Part shown: positions 53,141-62,469 of the stretch, piece after piece
Numbering within the stretch: position 1 is the first letter of the stretch
How the letters are laid out: every line of letters starts with the position of its first letter
Source: Thermodesulfobacteriota bacterium
GTDB taxonomy: Bacteria; Desulfobacterota; Binatia; Bin18
Assembly: GCA_964291405.2 (NCBI GenBank)
Contig: OZ219926.1
Coordinates: forward strand, 2,336,001-2,400,000
Length of the DNA: 64,000 bases
Reading direction: 5' to 3'
Translations under genes and position numbers: made by a program
The notes under the pieces: generated by a model
Told to the model about the DNA's origin: nothing
Databases searched by the model: none
Seen by the model: only the letters and a program-made list of their open reading frames with translations

Positions 53141-54637
53141 ATGTTCGAACGAATCTCGATCCTGTGCCTGAGCCTCCTCCTGGTGAGCGTATGGGGCTGC
53201 TCGGCAACCCTCAGACGCCCCTCGGCCAAAGAATATTATCAGCAGGCAACCGACTCTTTCACAGACGAGGACTATCTGGGGGCGTCCGATCAGTATCAGG
53301 AGTTGCTGGATCAGTACCCGCTCAACCCGTACGCTGAGGAAGCCCAGCTCAAAACGGCCTATGGGCTGTTTATGGAAGAAAATTACGCCGAAGCCGTTGC
53401 GGCCTTCAAAGACTTTGAGCGGGCCTATCCGACCAGCACGCATATGCCGTTTGTCAAGTATTTCCTCGGCATTACGAACTATAGTCAGATTCGTTCCAAG
53501 GATCGCGATCAGGCCGTGACGCGCCGGGCGGACGGATTCTTTCAAGAGGTGATAGACCGGTACCCGGAAAGTGCTTTCGTTCTCGAGGCTGAGGAAAAGA
53601 GCAAATCGGCGCGTGACATCCTGGCGGCCCACGAATTGATGGTGGCAAACTTTAACGAAAAGCGTGGAAATCTTACCGCCACAAAAGCACGCTTGCGCAG
53701 CCTGATTGAGCAATACTCCGAGACGGATGCCACCGTTGAAGCCTTGGATCGGCTCGAACAGATATTGAACGAAGAGGGTAACGTCGAGTTGGCCGATTTG
53801 GCGGCCCGCGCTCAGTCTGCACGGAGAGCGACTAGCGAGGCCCCCGGCGCTGAAGAGGATGACCCAGAGGGCGAGGCGACCGACTCGGACGGGCTGCTCG
53901 TTGCCGGAGTTGATCCCTTGCTGTTGCTCGTTTCCGAATTGAAAAAACAGGAAGAGGCGGAACGCCTGGCCCGGACGGAAGCGGATGCAGAAAGGCTGGC
54001 AGCGGAAAAAGAAGCCGAGCAAGAAGAACGCGCCCTGGATGACGCCTTTGACGATGACCGATCCTACGAAGTGGGTGACGATTATCGGGAAGTAGACTTG
54101 GAGGCATTGGAAGCAGAGCGGGCAGCTCTGGAGACTCCCGACATTGAGGAGCTGGAATTCGACGTTGAGACAGACGATCTCGGACCCTTGGAACTGACCG
54201 AGCAGGATGTCTCCGACGAGGACGACATTGGTCTTTCTGACGAGGACATCCTCACCCTTGACGTCGAGAGCGACGCTATTGCGCTTGAGGAAGATGCTGA
54301 AGCGTTGGAAGCCGCTGGGGTGTTGGACGCTGAAGAAGAAGCCGAGGAGGTCGTTGAAGAGATTGCCGTAGGCGAGGACATAACTATAGAAGATGAGGTT
54401 GAAGTCAGTGCAGAGGTGGCCGAGGCAGAAGAGGTCGAGGACGACGAAGCGGTTGCCGCAGTCGAGCTGAGTGAGCCGGTTGAGCTGAATGAGTCAGGGG
54501 TTGAATACGCCGAAATAGATGAGGAAGCTACCTCTTCCGACGCTCTCACGAACGGAGATGTCGCACTCAGAACAGGACGAGAGGCCGTTCTGGGTATCGA
54601 TATTGAGGAAATAGATTTTGAGTTTGAGGACGAATGA
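53141..54637 (+). CDS. bamD: Outer membrane assembly lipoprotein BamD with a long acidic C-terminal tail
   Basis: Lipobox VWGC; TPR-like helices (YPLNPYAEEAQL, DRDQ, LAAHELMVANF); D/E-rich tail. Confidence 0.85.
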   Translation: MFERISILCLSLLLVSVWGCSATLRRPSAKEYYQQATDSFTDEDYLGASDQYQELLDQYPLNPYAEEAQLKTAYGLFMEENYAEAVAAFKDFERAYPTSTHMPFVKYFLGITNYSQIRSKDRDQAVTRRADGFFQEVIDRYPESAFVLEAEEKSKSARDILAAHELMVANFNEKRGNLTATKARLRSLIEQYSETDATVEALDRLEQILNEEGNVELADLAARAQSARRATSEAPGAEEDDPEGEATDSDGLLVAGVDPLLLLVSELKKQEEAERLARTEADAERLAAEKEAEQEERALDDAFDDDRSYEVGDDYREVDLEALEAERAALETPDIEELEFDVETDDLGPLELTEQDVSDEDDIGLSDEDILTLDVESDAIALEEDAEALEAAGVLDAEEEAEEVVEEIAVGEDITIEDEVEVSAEVAEAEEVEDDEAVAAVELSEPVELNESGVEYAEIDEEATSSDALTNGDVALRTGREAVLGIDIEEIDFEFEDE

Positions 54638-54671
54638 GACCTGGCGCCTAGGCAGAGAGCGAGCGAAGCCG

Positions 54672-54701
54672 AGCCTCTTTCCTCTTGGGAAGAGGCTTTT
54701 T
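54672..54701 (+). terminator. Rho-independent terminator after bamD
   Basis: AGCCTCTT/AAGAGGCT stem followed by a T run. Confidence 0.7.
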
Positions 54702-54762
54702 ATTCTATGTCGCTGGATATTCTCATAAGGATAGACGCACTGCGTTTGGGAAATAAGACAGC

Positions 54763-55527
54763 ATGAAACACGCTGCATCCCCTATTCCAAAGAGCGTCCG
54801 TGAGGGGAAAGTCCTGGTGGTTGGCGTTGGCGGACTCGGCTCTCCGGCGGCATTGGCGCTCGCCCTGGCTGGGGTGGGAACGATTGGCCTGGTGGATTCG
54901 GACCGGGTCGAGCTGTCAAACTTACAGCGGCAAATTTTGCACTTTACCCCGGATATCGGAAAACCAAAGGTCGATTCGGCCAAGGAAAAAATTCAGCAAC
55001 TCAGTCCCTCGATAACGGTGGTGACCCATAACGAGCGGCTGCATGCGGGGAATCTTGCGGATGTCTTTGCTGCCTATGATTTTATTATTGACGGAACGGA
55101 CGGCGTGGCCACAAAGTTTTTGATCAATGACGGTGCCGTGCTCCTGAACAAACCGCTTTCTCATGCAGGTATTGTCCGGTTTCATGGTCAGGCCCTCACG
55201 GTCTTACCGAGACAAACGACGTGTTTGCGTTGCCTGTTCCCGGTTCCACCTCATCCCGATGAGAATCCCACCTGCCAGGAGGCCGGCATCCTTGGCAGCC
55301 TGGCCGGCAGTTTGGGGAGCGTTCAAGCTGCCGAGGCAGTGAAATATCTGGGTGGGGAAGGAGAACTGCTCACCGACCGTTTGCTCACCTATGACGCCTT
55401 CGCCTTACGCTGGCGAGAGGTTCGGGTACGCCCGAGCCCGCATTGTCCGTTGTGCGGCACGCAGCAGACGATTACGAGTATCCGACCCGAAGCCTATGAG
55501 TTGGAAAGGCTCTGTACTATGCTCTGA
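54763..55527 (+). CDS. ThiF/MoeB-family E1-like adenylyltransferase (active-site motifs intact, N-terminal RYSRQ absent)
   Basis: GVGGLG, DSDRVELSNLQRQ, DGTD, CLRC, TCQEAG, CPLC. Confidence 0.92.
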   Translation: MKHAASPIPKSVREGKVLVVGVGGLGSPAALALALAGVGTIGLVDSDRVELSNLQRQILHFTPDIGKPKVDSAKEKIQQLSPSITVVTHNERLHAGNLADVFAAYDFIIDGTDGVATKFLINDGAVLLNKPLSHAGIVRFHGQALTVLPRQTTCLRCLFPVPPHPDENPTCQEAGILGSLAGSLGSVQAAEAVKYLGGEGELLTDRLLTYDAFALRWREVRVRPSPHCPLCGTQQTITSIRPEAYELERLCTML

Positions 55528-55537
55528 GTCTGAGTAT

Positions 55538-55591
55538 AAAGAGGGAACGTGTCCTCCACTAGACACGAGATGCTGGACACGTTTCCTCTTT
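55538..55591. repeat. 54-bp palindromic element, copy 10
   Basis: AAAGAGGGAACGTGTCC...GGACACGTTTCCTCTTT. Confidence 0.9.
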
Positions 55592-55682
55592 CGGGCAGGG
55601 TGATTGTCAGACCGAAGCAAAAAAGTAACAGTAGAAGCCTATAAAGAGCAGATGAGTGATTCTGAATCAGGAGGGAGTGAAC

Positions 55683-55994
55683 ATGAGTGCGCAGGTCCGT
55701 ATCCCAACCCCGCTACGTCGCTTTACCGGCGGAGCGGAAGCAGTATCGGCCGATGGAGCCACGGTTGGGGCGTTAGTCGATAATATAGAGAGTAATCATC
55801 CGGGGATTAAAGAACGGCTGTGTGATGAGGCGGGCGAAGTCCGTCGCTTTGTCAATATCTTTGTGAATGGTGAAGATATTCGTTTTATCAACAACCTGGA
55901 TACGCCGGTGAACGAGGGCGACGAAGTGTCTATCGTGCCTGCTATTGCCGGAGGTTCTTTTTGCCCCCGCCTCACTACGCTCGGCACCCCCTAG
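55683..55994 (+). CDS. MoaD/CysO-like ubiquitin-fold sulfur carrier with a 12-aa extension after GG
   Basis: VRIPTPLR..T.G, RFVNIFVNGEDIR, IVPAIAGG followed by SFCPRLTTLGTP. Confidence 0.92.
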   Translation: MSAQVRIPTPLRRFTGGAEAVSADGATVGALVDNIESNHPGIKERLCDEAGEVRRFVNIFVNGEDIRFINNLDTPVNEGDEVSIVPAIAGGSFCPRLTTLGTP

Positions 55995-56014
55995 AGAAAA
56001 AAGGGGGGTAAAGC

Positions 56015-57076
56015 GTGTCACGCCTGCTGAAAAGAGTAAACGTGTCCTCCCAGGATAGAGAAGAGATGCTGGACACATCTGCTCTTTTTCCAACCGAGGG
56101 ACCATTAGTAGCAGGTCCCCTGCGTGTCCCGTCTGTGCTGCATCTGATTGGGAATACGCCGCTGCTTGAAACTACCCGGCTGAGTGCGGACATTCCTCCA
56201 GACGTCCGGGTCTATGCCAAACTCGAAGGTTTCAATCCGGGTGGATCGGTCAAAGATCGCCCTGCGCTGTGTATGATCCAAAAAGGGATCGAGAGCGGCG
56301 CGCTGACCCCGGACAAGATCATTCTCGATTCTACCTCCGGGAATACCGGTATCGCGCTGGCCATGATCGGTGCCGTGCTGGGCTATCCGGTCGAGCTGTG
56401 CATCCCGGCCAACGTCAGTATAGAGCGGAAAAAAATCATCTCCGCGTATGGGGCAAAGATGGTTTTCAGTAGCCCCATGGACGGCTCGGATGGAGCCTTG
56501 GAGCTGTGTCGGGAACGGTTGCAAGAGCATCCCGGGCGCTATTTCAAACCGGATCAATACTTTAATCCACACAACTCACTGGCACACTACCAGACAACCG
56601 GGCCGGAGCTGTGGTGGCAGACCAAAGAGCAGATCACCCACTTTGTGGCCGGCATGGGGACCGGCGGCACCCTGATGGGAACCGGACGCTACCTGAAGGA
56701 GAAAAACTCGGACATTCAGATTGTTGGGGTTGAACCGGATGACGCCTTTCACGGCCTTGAGGGGCTAAAGCATATGGACAGTTCCATTGTGCCCGGCATC
56801 TACCATGAAGAGCAGCTTGACCGAAAAATCAGCGTTTCAACTGAAGACGCTTATGAAACGGTGTACCGGCTTGGTAGAGAAGAAGGGGTATTGGTTGGCC
56901 AGTCATCCGGTGCGGCGATGTGGGCGGCGCTCCAGGTGGCCCGTGAGATTGACCGGGGCACGGTGGTGACGCTCTTCCCGGATTTCGGAGACAAATATCT
57001 CAGTACCAATCTGTGGATCGGCTGGAAAGAGTATAATCAACGTCAGGCCAACGGTCGGGCAGAGGGAGCGGCGTGA
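56015..57076 (+). CDS. cysM: PLP-dependent cysteine synthase (CysM-like)
   Basis: IGNTPL, KLEGFNPGGSVKDR, STSGNTG, GTGGT, GQSSGA; start uncertain. Confidence 0.9.
   Translation: MSRLLKRVNVSSQDREEMLDTSALFPTEGPLVAGPLRVPSVLHLIGNTPLLETTRLSADIPPDVRVYAKLEGFNPGGSVKDRPALCMIQKGIESGALTPDKIILDSTSGNTGIALAMIGAVLGYPVELCIPANVSIERKKIISAYGAKMVFSSPMDGSDGALELCRERLQEHPGRYFKPDQYFNPHNSLAHYQTTGPELWWQTKEQITHFVAGMGTGGTLMGTGRYLKEKNSDIQIVGVEPDDAFHGLEGLKHMDSSIVPGIYHEEQLDRKISVSTEDAYETVYRLGREEGVLVGQSSGAAMWAALQVAREIDRGTVVTLFPDFGDKYLSTNLWIGWKEYNQRQANGRAEGAA
56031..56087. repeat. 54-bp palindromic element, copy 11 (57 bp; in the cysM 5' end)
   Basis: AAAGAGTAAACGTGTCC...GGACACATCTGCTCTTT; read as KRVNVSSQDREEMLDTSAL. Confidence 0.85.
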
Positions 57077-57897
57077 CGGAGACATTGGGGTCCATTGGGT
57101 CCATGCTCGAAGACGCTCAGATCGAACGCTATAGCCGACAGATCATTCTACCCCAGGTCGGCGGAAAAGGGCAGGAAAAACTTCTTCGGAGTCAGGTGTA
57201 TGTTGATGGGGACGGGCTGCTCGCCGCCGCTGCGCTTTTTTATCTCGTCGCTGCCGGCGTTGGGACTATTGGCGTGACGCGGGCCAAAGCCGCTCCGATC
57301 TTTTCCGTTCTTGCGGAGCGATCCCTAGGATCAGATGAGCAGCCGGTGGCCCACACCCTCAGGCATCTAAACCCCGATTGTACCCTTGTGACCCATCTGG
57401 ATGAGGACGAACAACCGCCTCACCACTATGATCTGGTTCTGGCAACAACAGATGCATTGCACGATGGGTGGTACGCTCAGCACAAACCGTTTGTGTGGGG
57501 AGCAGCCAGCGGAGAAGGCGCCCGTTTATTCGTGAGCCGGGGAGACAGGGCTGACCGGCCATGCCTGCGCTGTCTTTTCCCGGAAAACCCACCCCGGCCC
57601 TATCGGGCCACCCCTCCGAGGAGGGGAGAGAAAACAGTCCCCTCCTCGGAGGGGTGCCGCGTAGCGGCGGGGTGGATTCCTCCGGACACGGGGACCAAAG
57701 ACCCGCTTGACTCTCCATACGCGCTCTTTTTGGGTACCCAACTCGTCACCGAAGCCCTGAAAATCATCCTCCAGCCTGAGGCGGATAACCCACCAAAACT
57801 ATTGTCATACACATTCCCAGCGTTTCACTGTGTCGAGCAGGCGGTTGAGAAGAACCCGTACTGCTCGGTCTGTTCGACGCCTGCCCAGAGTGCCTGA
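57073..57897 (+). CDS. Degenerate ThiF/MoeB paralog (RYSRQ and both CxxC kept; nucleotide-binding motifs lost)
   Basis: [28 protein letters not shown] in place of GxGGLG; no SNLxRQ; CLRC and CSVC. Confidence 0.85.
57589..57675. repeat. 87-bp inverted-repeat element in-frame in the second ThiF
   Basis: CCACCCCG...CACCCCTCCGAGGAGGGGA / TCCCCTCCTCGGAGGGGTG...CGGGGTGG. Confidence 0.85.
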
Positions 57898-57914
57898 CTG
57901 AGGAAGAAGAGGAC

Positions 57915-58862
57915 GTGGAGACCCAGGGGCCTCAGCCCGCCTCGAATAAAAAGAATTCCTATTCTCTCACGCATCTCAAGTATCTTGAGGCTGAGAGCAT
58001 TCATATCATTCGTGAGGTGGCGGCTGAGTTCGATAATCCGGTCATGCTGTACTCCATCGGTAAAGATTCGGCGGTCATGCTGCATCTGGCTCGGAAAGCG
58101 TTCGCGCCAGGGAAGCCGCCCTTCCCCCTGATGCATATCGACACGACCTGGAAGTTCCGGGAGATGATCACCTTCCGCGATACCTACATCAGACACGAGC
58201 TCGGCCTCGACCTCATCGTATATATTAACCAGGACGGGGTCAAAGCAGGCATCGGCCCCATTACGCATGGGTCCAAAAAGCACACCGACGTGATGAAGAC
58301 ACAGGCGCTCAAACAGGCGCTCGATCAGTACGGGTTTGATGCGGCTTTTGGGGGTGCGCGGCGGGATGAAGAGAAGTCACGGGCCAAAGAACGGGTGTAT
58401 TCGTTCCGTGACCGCAACCACCGCTGGGACCCCAAGAACCAGCGTCCCGAGCTGTGGAATCTATATAACTCCACGCTTGATAAAGGCGAGAGCATCCGGG
58501 TTTTTCCCTTATCGAATTGGACCGAATTGGATGTCTGGCAATACATCTACCGCGAGAATATCCCGATTGTTCCGTTGTACTTTGCCAAGGAACGTCCGGT
58601 TGTCGAGCGCGATGGGGTGCTGATTATGGTCGATGATGACCGTCTACCGCTCCATCCGGATGAACGGCCGCAATTGAGAAAAGTCCGCTTTCGCACTCTG
58701 GGCTGCTATCCGCTGACGGGGGCGATTGAATCCGAGGCGGACACCCTGCCGTTGATTATTCAGGAAATGCTGCTGGCGACACACTCCGAACGGCAAGGTC
58801 GCGTCATTGATTTTGACCAGTCCGGCTCTATGGAAGAGAAGAAAAAAGAAGGTTACTTCTAA
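57915..58862 (+). CDS. cysD: Sulfate adenylyltransferase subunit 2
   Basis: [42 protein letters not shown]. Confidence 0.98.
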
Positions 58863-58869
58863 TAGCAGG

Positions 58870-60840
58870 ATGTCTCACCAATCTGACCTGATCGCGACCG
58901 ATATCGAAGCCTATCTCGCCCAGCATGAGCGCAAGGACCTGCTGCGCTTCCTGACCTGCGGCAGCGTGGATGACGGCAAGAGCACCCTGATCGGCCGTCT
59001 CCTGTACGACTCCAAGCTGATCTATGAGGATCAGCTTGAGGCGATAAAAAAAGACTCGATTCGGCATGGCACGACCGACACGGAGTTTGATCCCGCTCTG
59101 CTGACCGACGGCCTCAAAGCCGAACGCGAACAGGGCATCACCATCGATGTCGCCTATCGCTATTTTTCGACCGCCAAACGCAAATTCATTATTGCCGACA
59201 CTCCAGGTCATGAGCAGTACACCCGGAATATGGCGACTGGCGCGTCAACCTGTGACTTGGCCATTATTTTGATTGATGCCCGCCATGGTGTCCTGACCCA
59301 AACCCGGCGACACAGCTTTATCGCCTCTCTCTTGGGGATCAAGCACATTGTTGTTGCCGTCAATAAGATGGATTTGGTGGACTACAGCCAGGAGGAGTTT
59401 GAGCGGATAGTCGAAGATTATACCGACTTTGCCGCCAGACTGGAGCTGAGCGATGTGCACTTCCTGCCCATGGCGGCACTGAGCGGCGATAATGTGGTGA
59501 ACAAAAGCGAGCATATGCCGTGGTATACGGGCAGCCCGCTGATGCACCTGTTAGAGCAGGTCTATATTGCCTCGGATACCAATCTGATCGACTTTCGTTT
59601 TCCGGTCCAATACGTCAATCGTCCCAACCTGGACTTCCGCGGTTTCTGTGGCACGGTGGCCTCGGGCATCGTGCGGCCGGGCGATGAGGTCATGGTGTTC
59701 CCGTCGCGCAAAACAAGCCGGGTGAAAGCCATTCATACCTTTGAGGGGGAAGTAGAGCAGGCCATGCCGCCGCTGGCCGTGACCCTGACGCTTGAAGACG
59801 AGATTGATGTCAGTCGCGGAGATATGCTGGTTCATCCCAACAATGTCCCCCTCATCGCCACGCACTTTGAAGCCATGCTGGTGTGGATGGCTGAAGAGCC
59901 CATGCAGCCCGGCAAGCAGTATTTCCTGAAGCAGGCCACCACCATGACGCCCGGAGTCATTACCGACGTGCGGTATCGCATAGACGTCAATACCCTCCAC
60001 CGGAAAGACGCTACGCAACTGGCTCTCAATGAGATCGGACGGTGCGCCTTTGCCCTCGAAAAGCCGATCGCCTGTGACCCGTACCGCAAGAACCGTACGT
60101 CCGGGGCGTTTGTCGTTATTGACCGCCTCACCAATAATACGGTCGGCGCCGGGATGATCATCGACCGAAATCAGTCTTTTGGGACTCCTGGGTCCATTGG
60201 GCCTTGGGGGTCAAGACTCAATGGACCCAATGACTCAATGGACCCAATGAACTCAACTATCCGGGCGGAGACCGGGTTGATTGCCGTGACCGAGCGTGAG
60301 CAGGCCCTGCAGCAGCACGCGCTCACGGTCTGGCTGACGGGTTTGTCAGGCTCCGGAAAATCGTCCATTGCGGAACGACTTGAGCAGCGCCTGCATACGG
60401 AGGGGTTCCATGCCTATCGGCTCGACGGTGACAATCTGCGCCTGGGGTTGAATCGGGACCTAGCATTTTCCGAAATGGACCGTGCGGAAAATATTCGCCG
60501 TATTGCCGAGGTCGCACGGCTCTTTAACCAAGCGGGGCTCATCATTCTGGTGCCGGTCATTGCTCCCTTTCAGGCAGACCGGCAACACGCGGCAGAGGTC
60601 ATCGGTGTGGACCGCTTTTTTGAGGTGTATGTGGACACCCCGCTTGAAGTATGCGAGGAGCGCGATGTGAAAGGACTGTATCAAAAGGCGCGGGCCGGGG
60701 AGATTTCAGACTTTACCGGCATCTCCTCTCCCTATGAACCGCCGCCAACGCCGGCACTCCGACTGACGACGGTTGGTCACACCGTCGAGGAATCTACCGA
60801 TGTCGTGTTTCGGGCGATTGCGGCTCGTATCCGTCTGTAG
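58870..60840 (+). CDS. cysNC: Bifunctional sulfate adenylyltransferase subunit 1 / APS kinase
   Basis: [19 protein letters not shown]-terminal [27 protein letters not shown]. Confidence 0.97.
60177..60257. repeat. Inverted 9-mer array in-frame in the CysN-CysC linker
   Basis: TTTGGGACT CCTGGGTCC ATTGGGCCT TGGGGGTCA ... GGACCCAAT GACTCAATG GACCCAATG AACTCAACT. Confidence 0.8.
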
Positions 60841-60894
60841 ACGCCTACCTTTCATGTTCGCCTTGCAAATGCTTCCCTCAAGAGGAGCCCCCGG

Positions 60895-62469
60895 ATGTTT
60901 GGTCTTAGACTGGCAATCACGACAGGGATTCTTATCCTGACGTGTACGCTACCCGTGGCGAGTCAGGATCAGGAAGAAGTCGATTTCCGGACGCCAACCC
61001 AAACGGTAGAGGAGCAGTTTCTTTTTCTGCGGAAAGGGATTCAGGCAGAATATTTTTCGCGCGAAGTCGGACAAGACTGGGATCAGATGGTGTTCTGGCC
61101 GCACGGGGCCGTTCGCCCAACCCATCTGGTCGGCTGCATTGAAGAAGTCCTCGACTGTTTGAGCGGCACCTGTGGCGAGTCTTTTGTCGTTGGGGATAAA
61201 CTGACACCGAGTGTCCAGGTCATTGACTTGCAGACCCGGACGGTCACTACCCTGGTGCGCGGGATGACGATTTGCGATGGGATCCGTACCACACCGTGGG
61301 GCACGGTGGTCGCAACGGAAGAGGACTTCGTCAGCGACACCGGGGCGGTGTATGAAATCCTGGACCCGCTGACGAATGACGAGTTTACCATTCTTGAGCG
61401 AGGCAGTGGCGCTGCGCCGGCCCGGATTGTGGATCAGGCCGGCCAGGACGCCTCGGACCGCATTATCAAACGCACAGCCTTTCCCGTGATCCGCTACGAA
61501 GGCTTTCTCGTGCATGAAACCGGCGTGGTGATTGCGGGCGATGAAGAGCGACCCGGCAGCTATGAGCCGGGCGATACTGATGGCGGCACGGTGTATAAGT
61601 TCATTCCTACCAAGCTGTACGACCCCGACACCGGTCATATTGCGTCCCTCGATCAATCTCCCTTGATCGCAGGCACAACATACGCGCTGCAAGTGTCGTG
61701 TCGGGAGGACCAGCAGCAGTTCGGTCAAGGCTGCGAGATTGGCAACGGCGCCTGGATTCCACTCACACCAACCGTCGCGTCCGAGATCAGTGTTGATGAG
61801 GGCGAAACCCGCATTGGTCGCGAGGCGGCCAATGCGGCTGGGGCAACGGCTTATTACCGTCCCGAAGACCTCCATCGTGACCCGATGTTCAGCGACCCCG
61901 ACCAGCCTGATGCCGTCCGCTTCTGTTTTGCCGTCACCGGGAACCATGCCGGCAGCAACTACGGCGAGGTGCAGTGCGCGATTGATCAGAATGTGACGGC
62001 GGCAACCGGGACAACGGGAGAGATCGTGATAAACCGCTTCATTGAGGGCAGCCCCGAATTCAGTCAGCCGGATAATCTTGCCTTTCAGCCGATAACGGGA
62101 GTGCTGTTTGTTGTCGAGGACAATGGGATGAGCCAGGGGAATAGCGATGTATGGGCCTGTCTGCCGGACGGCGCGGACGACGATATCAAGTCTGACGGCT
62201 GTGTGCGATTGCTCAAAATTGCCGATGGTTCTGCCGAGTCAACCGGCTTTATTTTCACGCCGGATGGCACCGAGGCGTATTTTGCGATCCAGCATAGTGC
62301 CGACGGCAATATGCCTTTGGTGGATGATTTTCGGACCGATGACCTCATCCGGCTGTCCGGGTTTCGGGTCAGACCCATGAAGTACGATTTTGGTGCACGG
62401 ACGATGTACCGTCTCGAACGTCAGGCCTATCGATATTTCGGTTTTGGAACCGAAAACCAAATCGAGTAG
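60895..62469 (+). CDS. Secreted PhoX/DUF839-like alkaline phosphatase family protein
   Basis: Signal peptide; CDGIRTTPWGTVVATEE, RPED, PDNLAF, EDN, ESTGFIF, IQH. Confidence 0.85.
   Translation: MFGLRLAITTGILILTCTLPVASQDQEEVDFRTPTQTVEEQFLFLRKGIQAEYFSREVGQDWDQMVFWPHGAVRPTHLVGCIEEVLDCLSGTCGESFVVGDKLTPSVQVIDLQTRTVTTLVRGMTICDGIRTTPWGTVVATEEDFVSDTGAVYEILDPLTNDEFTILERGSGAAPARIVDQAGQDASDRIIKRTAFPVIRYEGFLVHETGVVIAGDEERPGSYEPGDTDGGTVYKFIPTKLYDPDTGHIASLDQSPLIAGTTYALQVSCREDQQQFGQGCEIGNGAWIPLTPTVASEISVDEGETRIGREAANAAGATAYYRPEDLHRDPMFSDPDQPDAVRFCFAVTGNHAGSNYGEVQCAIDQNVTAATGTTGEIVINRFIEGSPEFSQPDNLAFQPITGVLFVVEDNGMSQGNSDVWACLPDGADDDIKSDGCVRLLKIADGSAESTGFIFTPDGTEAYFAIQHSADGNMPLVDDFRTDDLIRLSGFRVRPMKYDFGARTMYRLERQAYRYFGFGTENQIE

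Follow-up and report, generated by a model that had tools for sequence, protein, structure and literature searches.

How can two proteins of the ThiF/MoeB family work in one cysteine operon when each lacks what the other retains? The question is raised by a stretch of 64,000 nucleotides (nt) from a Thermodesulfobacteriota bacterium of the class Binatia (assembly GCA_964291405.2, contig OZ219926.1, forward-strand positions 2,336,001 to 2,400,000), here called the window and corresponding to G000:C3:2336001-2400000 in our numbering, where G000 is the window's own genome. Downstream of a bamD-like gene it carries six genes on the plus strand, ThiF-A, cysO, cysM, ThiF-B, cysD and cysN-cysC. From comparative genomics and one structural model we propose, with a probability of roughly 0.7, that ThiF-A and ThiF-B form a heterodimer with one active site which adenylates the sulfur carrier CysO.

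ThiF-A (54763-55527, plus strand) encodes a ThiF/MoeB-family adenylyltransferase of 254 residues, recognised by profile match and motifs. It scores 240.4 bits with the Pfam ThiF profile (PF00899, cut-off 28.1), aligned to profile positions 17-237 of 238 only, and E values are 2.7e-49 to E. coli ThiF and 1.5e-45 to MoeB. It reaches no NCBIfam equivalog cut-off, the best being PRK08762 with 276.3 as against 449. The nucleotide site is complete, with GVGGLG at residues 21-26, DSDRVELSNLQRQ at 45-57 (including the ribose Asp D45 and SNLQRQ at 52-57), K69 and DGTD at 110-113. The cysteine motifs are CLRC (154-157), TCQEAG (170-175, which holds the crossover-loop Cys) and CPLC (228-231). None of the 29 A-type proteins from relatives deviates at G21-G26, D45, S52-Q57, K69, D110/D113, the CxxC pairs or the loop Cys. 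What is missing is the N-terminal RYxRQ arm, which is absent from all 29 whole A-types as well; residue 12 of ThiF-A aligns with residue 26 of E. coli ThiF. An earlier note on this DNA had described ThiF-A as a protein that keeps GxGGLG, DxDxVxxSNLxRQ, DxxD, both CxxC pairs and TCQEAG and has no RYSRQ, and the profile match and the motif check bear this out. The ATG at 54763 has an in-frame TAA three codons upstream (54754-54756), which, as the note also said, rules out an upstream start. The 125 nt between ThiF-A and the bamD-like lipoprotein gene (53141-54637, plus strand) contain a terminator-like hairpin of 12 pairs (54671-54698) with a T run, together 54671-54705 on the plus strand, that closes the bamD-like gene. 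The stop codon and the hairpin therefore leave no hidden arm. The cysteine-containing tail at the C-terminal end of ThiF-A, ITSIRPEAYELERLC, was considered as a new sulfur-relay element and rejected, since the same PxIT...C tail occurs in ordinary MoeB-type rows; it is also present in the rhodanese-MoeB of the same genome.

ThiF-B has the complementary pattern. It is a ThiF-fold protein of 264 residues (57103-57897, plus strand), recognised by profile match and by its relatives, with 61.9 bits in two stretches to the Pfam ThiF profile (same cut-off) and an E value of 1.4e-11 to E. coli ThiF. Compared with the latter, GLGGLG is replaced by GDGLLA, the ribose-Asp region by TRAK, SNLQRQ by SVLAER, the Lys region by SDE and DxxD by ATTD, where the first Asp has become Ala. 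The crossover-loop Cys is also lost, and the RYSRQ arm and both CxxC pairs (CLRC and CSVC) are retained; all 31 sequences agree at E8-P17, C154/C157 and C254/C257. The first description of ThiF-B, with RYSRQ and CxxC kept and the glycine loop and SNLxRQ lost, thus stands as far as the motifs are concerned, but not its start at 57073. The listed open reading frame does begin with a GTG there, but the relatives are conserved only from the ATG at 57103 onwards. In source records B-type proteins are named active adenylyltransferases or sulfurtransferases, which they cannot be, and this is an annotation issue.

ThiF-B also carries a palindrome (57580-57685, strand not assigned) with 48-nt arms that are 73% complementary, inserted in frame at the crossover-loop region and adding about 35-40 residues. 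It is a dispersed repeat with 75 matches in the genome, both strands counted, and is seen with unrelated flanks in contigs from RNA libraries. The relatives have other inserts, or none, at this site.

Is ThiF-B then a decaying duplicate without function? The loss of all ATP-site motifs, the long branches in the tree described below and the in-frame repeat insertion would fit such a fate, but the conservation of the protein speaks clearly against it. A protein search of the B family showed an N-terminus that is nearly unchanged while the overall identity drops to about 40%, and 36 residues are invariant at 36-45% overall identity. In 31 genes (L012 and the truncated L034 were left out) the proportions of nonsynonymous (pN) and synonymous (pS) differences were 0.073 and 0.61 for the arm, residues 2-26, and 0.34 and 0.64 outside it, giving pN/pS ratios of 0.12 and 0.53. 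Residues 8-17 are identical in all 31, with synonymous variation at each codon. The arm of B is under strong purifying selection; absence of such selection on RYSRQ had been named beforehand as a refutation of the pairing, and that refutation fails. Moreover, the reading frame of B is open in 32 of 32 loci, in 47 of 48 other genomes of the family and in the window's own genome, and two class-wide matches carry one stop each. Contigs from RNA libraries that cover parts of B add a weak hint in the same direction. We regard simple decay as extremely improbable.

The two truncated proteins are found together. A scan of species-representative genomes retained 80 loci, of which 32 (L008-L039) have an open reading frame scoring best to B, and the other 48 have ordinary full-length ThiF/MoeB proteins. 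An A-type frame lies upstream of B in 30 of the 32, whole in 29 and cut by the contig end in L027; in L024 and L032 the contig DNA does not reach the A position. Co-occurrence across genomes, a check set beforehand, is thus strict, with A present wherever the upstream DNA exists. RYxRQ is found in none of the 29 whole A frames, stop-to-stop extension included, and GxGGxG and SNLxRQ in all of them; RYSRQ is found in all 32 B frames and either ATP motif in none. The pattern is not a product of chance; all related loci open to assessment show it. The gene order in the relatives is bamD, A, a threonine-synthase-family gene (L025-L038), cysO, cysM (not in L035-L038), B, cysD and cysN, and A and B are inherited together in this operon. 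Of 301 genomes at class level, the window's own and 47 of the 48 others in its family have a B-type match that scores at least 190 bits, the exception in the family being G295. Families f2, f7 and f14 show a few B-like matches of lower score, and in the rest of the class ordinary ThiFs alone match, with at most 146 bits, including four genomes flagged as unpublished (G183, G208, G087 and G213).

How the split may have come about is suggested by ten loci from other families, which were fetched and their motifs tabulated. In families f4, f15 and f17 (L089-L092) there is one ThiF, of full length and complete in its arm and ATP motifs, and its neighbours are thrC-like, cysO and cysM genes. Genome G005 (f7, L096) has two ThiFs flanking the cassette, with the arms SRYERQ and ERYSRQ and ATP motifs in both; the two copies match MoeB profiles end to end, and the second lacks the loop Cys only. 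Genome G076 (also f7, L094) has a first copy without the arm and a second copy that is partly degraded, where the arm, the glycine loop, the ribose Asp and the Lys are kept, TALRRQ replaces SNLxRQ and half a DxxD is left. In families f14, f2 and f1, the last being the window's own, two ThiFs are present and the complementary loss is complete.

A tree was made from 45 rows, in which the three ThiFs of the window's genome and eight A/B pairs stand with the 16 from the ten fetched loci and with 10 sequences taken from the 48 ordinary ThiFs. All first copies group in a single clade (support 100/98), whose sister is the group of single-copy enzymes of Binatia (100/97); the second copies group in another (100/98), where branches are 3-5 times longer. 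The B clade falls outside the pair of A and single-copy enzymes with weak support (89/84), and the tree does not show B to be a sister paralog of A. For the arm the tree requires two changes or more, or three losses if regain is barred, each in a lineage with a second copy, and the arm is retained in all single-copy enzymes examined (4 Binatia rows and 10 outgroup rows). The corresponding count for the ATP motifs, two changes, was not used since the outgroup row L078 failed the motif pattern.

A second ThiF copy probably joined a cassette with one full-length homodimeric enzyme, after which the first copy would have dropped its arm and the second its ATP site. We lean slightly towards the view that this one bacterial class preserves living stages of such a history, from a single full-length enzyme over two intact paralogs and partial loss to full complementary loss with an asymmetric interface. 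The inactive/active architecture of ubiquitin-activating (E1) enzymes would then have originated here independently of eukaryotes and of the bacterial protein BilD, in sulfur metabolism without conjugation machinery. That the inactive/active split has a separate origin, as suggested from the first inspection of the locus, is plausible in that both clades lie among bacterial ThiFs; on duplication as against acquisition of B the tree is silent.

To get a picture of the predicted complex, A and B were modelled with ATP from an alignment of 29 rows for A and one of 31 rows for B. ipSAE came to 0.92, 0.92 and 0.91, and no control out of three exceeded 0.00; 58 of 80 solved complexes and 2 of 110 mismatched pairs attained this mark in the calibration, which unlike this run did not use own alignments and ATP. 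At least 83% of the contacts are common to the runs, and the predicted local distance difference test (pLDDT) score of B is at least 77. The geometry of the modelled dimer is the same as in MoeB/ThiF dimers. Its tightest contacts are between A 179-190 and B 205-216, and Glu8 and Arg9 of B contact Leu51 and Ser52 of A, at the start of the SNLQRQ loop. Whether the arginine of B lies at the ATP site of A in such a model had been set as a check beforehand, and Arg9 is placed against Ser52. The model thus indicates that A and B can lie like a ThiF dimer, with the arm of B at the site of A; binding itself is a prediction.

The modelled interface comprises 53 residues of B and contains 18 of its 36 invariant residues (Fisher p 1.2e-5). 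With the arm excluded, 10 of 19 invariant residues lie in an interface of 43 (p 4e-4). The interface also seems to have changed in an asymmetric way. Full-length enzymes have a LYLAAAG helix after the glycine loop and small residues (G, then S or T) in the interface helix. Tyr47 of B, which is ancestral and invariant, packs in the model on Gly182 and Ser179 of A, and the counterpart of this tyrosine in A, position 32, is small in all 29 sequences of family f1 (A, G or T). Leu208 and the invariant Phe209 of B stand where A has Gly182 and Ser183 and the single-copy enzymes Gly and Ser/Thr. A32 and B208/209 are both in the modelled interface lists, the pair itself not being among the 25 contacts listed, and from the pseudo-symmetry of the dimer A32 should face B208/209. 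Such an exchange of bulk favours A:B over A:A, which would leave a cavity, and over B:B, where the contact would be crowded.

Taken in this way, A would be the catalytic subunit, binding ATP as well as the carrier's C-terminal Gly-Gly and forming CysO-AMP. B, as the non-catalytic subunit, would use the ancestral ThiF dimer interface to pair with A, and its N-terminal arm, with Arg9 as arginine finger, would cover the nucleotide site of A, so that the heterodimer has a single active site. A sulfur transfer would follow, giving the CysO-thiocarboxylate that is used by CysM. Profile searches found no rhodanese domain on A or B, which consist of the ThiF domain only, and therefore some outside sulfur donor would be needed. 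The role given to the arm has a model in the homodimeric enzymes, where the arginine of one subunit had been said to complete the site of its partner; this agrees with the passage of PMC13139853 that describes ThiF Arg11 and MoeB Arg14 as arginine fingers from the neighbouring subunit.

Several points weigh against a mixed dimer. The same passage of PMC13139853 states, citing Lake 2001 and Nagy 2016, that the MoeB and ThiF fingers are dispensable, that E. coli TcdA is without an arginine finger, and that the mutation R59A in Tcd1 changed activity little; as fingers are non-essential elsewhere, A might work without any arm. A full-length rhodanese-MoeB, encoded elsewhere in the genome, is an alternative partner. 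The score of the A:B model may echo the solved MoeB/ThiF homodimers, and its calibration was set up differently. The conservation of B's interface fits a B:B homodimer equally well, and the exchange of bulk is complete in family f1 only, the first copies of f2, f7 and f14 keeping Y, Q or L. The 30 loci that carry both genes are kin: for the most part they reflect a single inheritance and not independent cases. Finally, duplication of A's ancestor and acquisition from elsewhere both fit the tree as the source of B, going by the sequences compared.

The first of these points leads to another explanation, that A is a self-sufficient homodimer which needs no arm and that B is a pseudoenzyme with some other job, such as a scaffold for CysO or CysM, sulfur handover or regulation. 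It would agree with the retention of every catalytic motif in A and with the reported dispensability of the finger in MoeB/ThiF and its absence from TcdA, and also with B evolving 3-5 times faster than A, as judged from branch lengths, and tolerating a repeat insertion in a loop. However, the arm is the most conserved part of B, its sole described role is at the nucleotide site of a partner, and the site of B itself is dead. All single-copy enzymes that were examined keep the arm, which is lost only alongside a second copy, and the asymmetric change of the interface fits A:B better than A:A or B:B. For these reasons we hold a self-sufficient A to be unlikely, although it is the strongest competitor of the A/B heterodimer.

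The rhodanese-MoeB (G000:C3 about 4497381-4498601; L001 1066-2286) is a frame of 406 residues with 565 bits to PRK08762, full length; it has a rhodanese domain at the N-terminus and an arm reading RYARH, and it adjoins a 4Fe-4S ferredoxin-like open reading frame. As it is the only other ThiF-family gene above the Pfam cut-off in the genome, and an outside sulfur donor is needed, A or B could pair with this enzyme instead, which would give A an arm or rhodanese sulfur and leave B as an adaptor. Against this stand its distance of about 2.1 megabases, its presence in families both with and without the A/B pair (matches of about 400 residues across the class), and its own arm and live site, by which it needs no partner, as well as the joint inheritance of A and B in one operon. 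We consider such a pairing improbable, more so than a self-sufficient A. Of the original proposal, the asymmetric A/B pair serving a CysO-like carrier and CysM has gained from the co-occurrence, the graded series, the selection on the arm and the model. The word "obligate" goes beyond what these results support, as fingers are reported as non-essential in the passage cited above and the rhodanese-MoeB is present in the genome.

The putative substrate of the heterodimer is a carrier of the ThiS/MoaD fold (55683-55994, plus strand), identified by profile match with 69.1 bits as against 22.5 for ThiS and 65.3 as against 60 for SAMP1. Its sequence runs to ...AIAGG and is followed by a tail of 12 residues, SFCPRLTTLGTP (55959-55994). 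Among 31 relatives the carrier ends in GG in 16, in GGSG in 3, in a long tail in 9 and in other tails in 3. A carrier with a tail would have to be trimmed. The genome has just one JAMM gene (Prok-JAB, desampylase-like; G000:C3:3669849-3670196, L088 1222-1950), which is unlinked to the operon.

The presumed user of the carrier is a CysM-type cysteine synthase, a pyridoxal phosphate (PLP) enzyme with a frame at 56015-57076 on the plus strand. By profile match it scores 350.9 with TIGR01136 (cysKM), above 344.15, and 378.5 with TIGR01138 (cysM), under 394.2. Its homology begins near residue 39-41 of the listed frame. A hairpin repeat of 54 nt, with 17-nt arms AAAGAGGGAACGTGTCC and GGACACGTTTCCTCTTT that are 94% complementary, flanks cysO (strand not assigned). 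One copy lies in the spacer between A and cysO (55538-55591) and a second (56031-56087) within the listed frame of CysM, at its 5' end; the true start of CysM is probably downstream of this second copy. The family of this repeat is dispersed, with 41 matches in the genome.

In many relatives (L025-L038, L089-L092, L094, L096 and L097) a threonine-synthase-family gene of about 424 residues is present between the first ThiF and cysO, with an N-terminal CxxC...CxxC ribbon and 324 bits to PRK08197. L035-L038 and L097 have this gene and no cysM. No close copy was found in the window's genome, where the best match has 37% identity. By analogy with similar systems, the gene may encode a second carrier-dependent PLP enzyme, for instance for homocysteine.

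Directly downstream of ThiF-B lies cysD (57915-58862, plus strand), encoding subunit 2 of sulfate adenylyltransferase, a position that is kept in the relatives. It is followed by a cysN-cysC fusion (58807-60840, plus strand; profile match) for the GTPase subunit and adenosine 5'-phosphosulfate kinase. The listed frame of the fusion, from TTG 58807, shares 56 nt with the end of cysD; the Met of MSHQSDL, a few codons past that end, is the probable start of the conserved protein. In 54500-61000 three promoter-like sites were found as compared to 3.4 expected, and the same scan gave only weak terminator-like sites on the plus strand of the operon interior, all in coding sequence.

Contigs of four RNA libraries (word shares 0.05-0.08) match pieces of A, cysO, cysM and B. 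Most are 90-99% alike and therefore derive from relatives, and one of 233 nt, with zero differences, covers 56910-57139, where cysM ends and B starts. They are a weak hint only, as such libraries can contain DNA, contigs cannot prove a transcript and gaps in their coverage carry no information. DNA runs labelled sponge metagenome (X3, X6, X8, X11 and X13) contain 59-85% of sampled words of 54700-57900, which is not independent evidence of habitat because one of the richest runs may be the source sample.

The closest known relatives of the proposed A/B pair in structure are E. coli MoeB and ThiF (PDB 1JW9/1JWA/1JWB and 1ZUD/1ZFN), which share the fold, the family and the modelled dimer geometry, and in which, according to the passage of PMC13139853 named above, the arginine of the arm also comes from the neighbouring subunit. 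They differ in that each is a homodimer, where both sites are live and both subunits have an arm. In the A/B pair the arm and the live site are on separate polypeptides, so there can be at most one complete site per dimer. In pathway, the closest is MoeZ(R)-CysO-CysM-Mec of Mycobacterium, which, in the part of PMC3227635 that describes it, likewise has a carrier of the ThiS fold, a CysM-type synthase and a ThiF-family activator. There one enzyme, which includes a rhodanese domain, serves as activator, whereas the cassette described here has no rhodanese on A or B, an unlinked JAMM gene and a tail after the Gly-Gly of the carrier.

In the eukaryotic enzymes NAE1(APPBP1)-UBA3 and SAE1-SAE2, an inactive and an active adenylation subunit are found on two chains, with a single nucleotide site. 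Compared with them, A (254 residues) is without catalytic-cysteine and ubiquitin-fold domains and has a short crossover loop, and the tree points to a split that evolved inside the bacterial ThiFs. The cassette has no ubiquitin-conjugating enzyme (E2), and by analogy its product would be a thiocarboxylated carrier for CysM. The key arginine comes from the inactive half in these enzymes too, as stated in the passage on BilD in the preprint PMC10557695. According to the same passage, BilD of the Bil antiviral operons is a bacterial E1 in which inactive and active adenylation domains form a pseudo-dimer with one site, and it is the exception among bacterial E1-like proteins, as all others known (ThiS as printed, MoeB and Cap2) homodimerise. 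It is a single chain with a CYS domain, works with an E2 and conjugates proteins; A and B are two genes in sulfur metabolism. Yeast Tcd1-Tcd2, the dehydratase for cyclic N6-threonylcarbamoyladenosine (ct6A) in tRNA, is also a heterodimer of ThiF-family paralogs in which the inactive one donates a finger, in the account given in the relevant part of PMC13139853 (2026). Unlike A/B it is eukaryotic, acts on tRNA and keeps both N-terminal regions, and mutation of the finger had little effect.

The design of a dead and a live E1 half is usually viewed as eukaryotic and lately also as part of bacterial defence. In the present case two separate genes of an ordinary cysteine pathway appear to have given rise to it, with intermediates seemingly kept in related genomes as a tractable series of small, soluble bacterial proteins. 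From such a series one could learn by what route a symmetric dimer turns into an obligate mixed one, and what contribution comes from the N-terminal arm, whose arginine is reported as dispensable in MoeB and ThiF. In the open-access literature searched, with subscription journals and supplements outside the scope, no two-gene bacterial ThiF heterodimer is described. The design of the A/B pair thus has precedents in NAE1-UBA3, BilD and Tcd1-Tcd2, and what would be new, judging from the sequences, is its appearance as two small bacterial genes in a CysO/CysM cassette.

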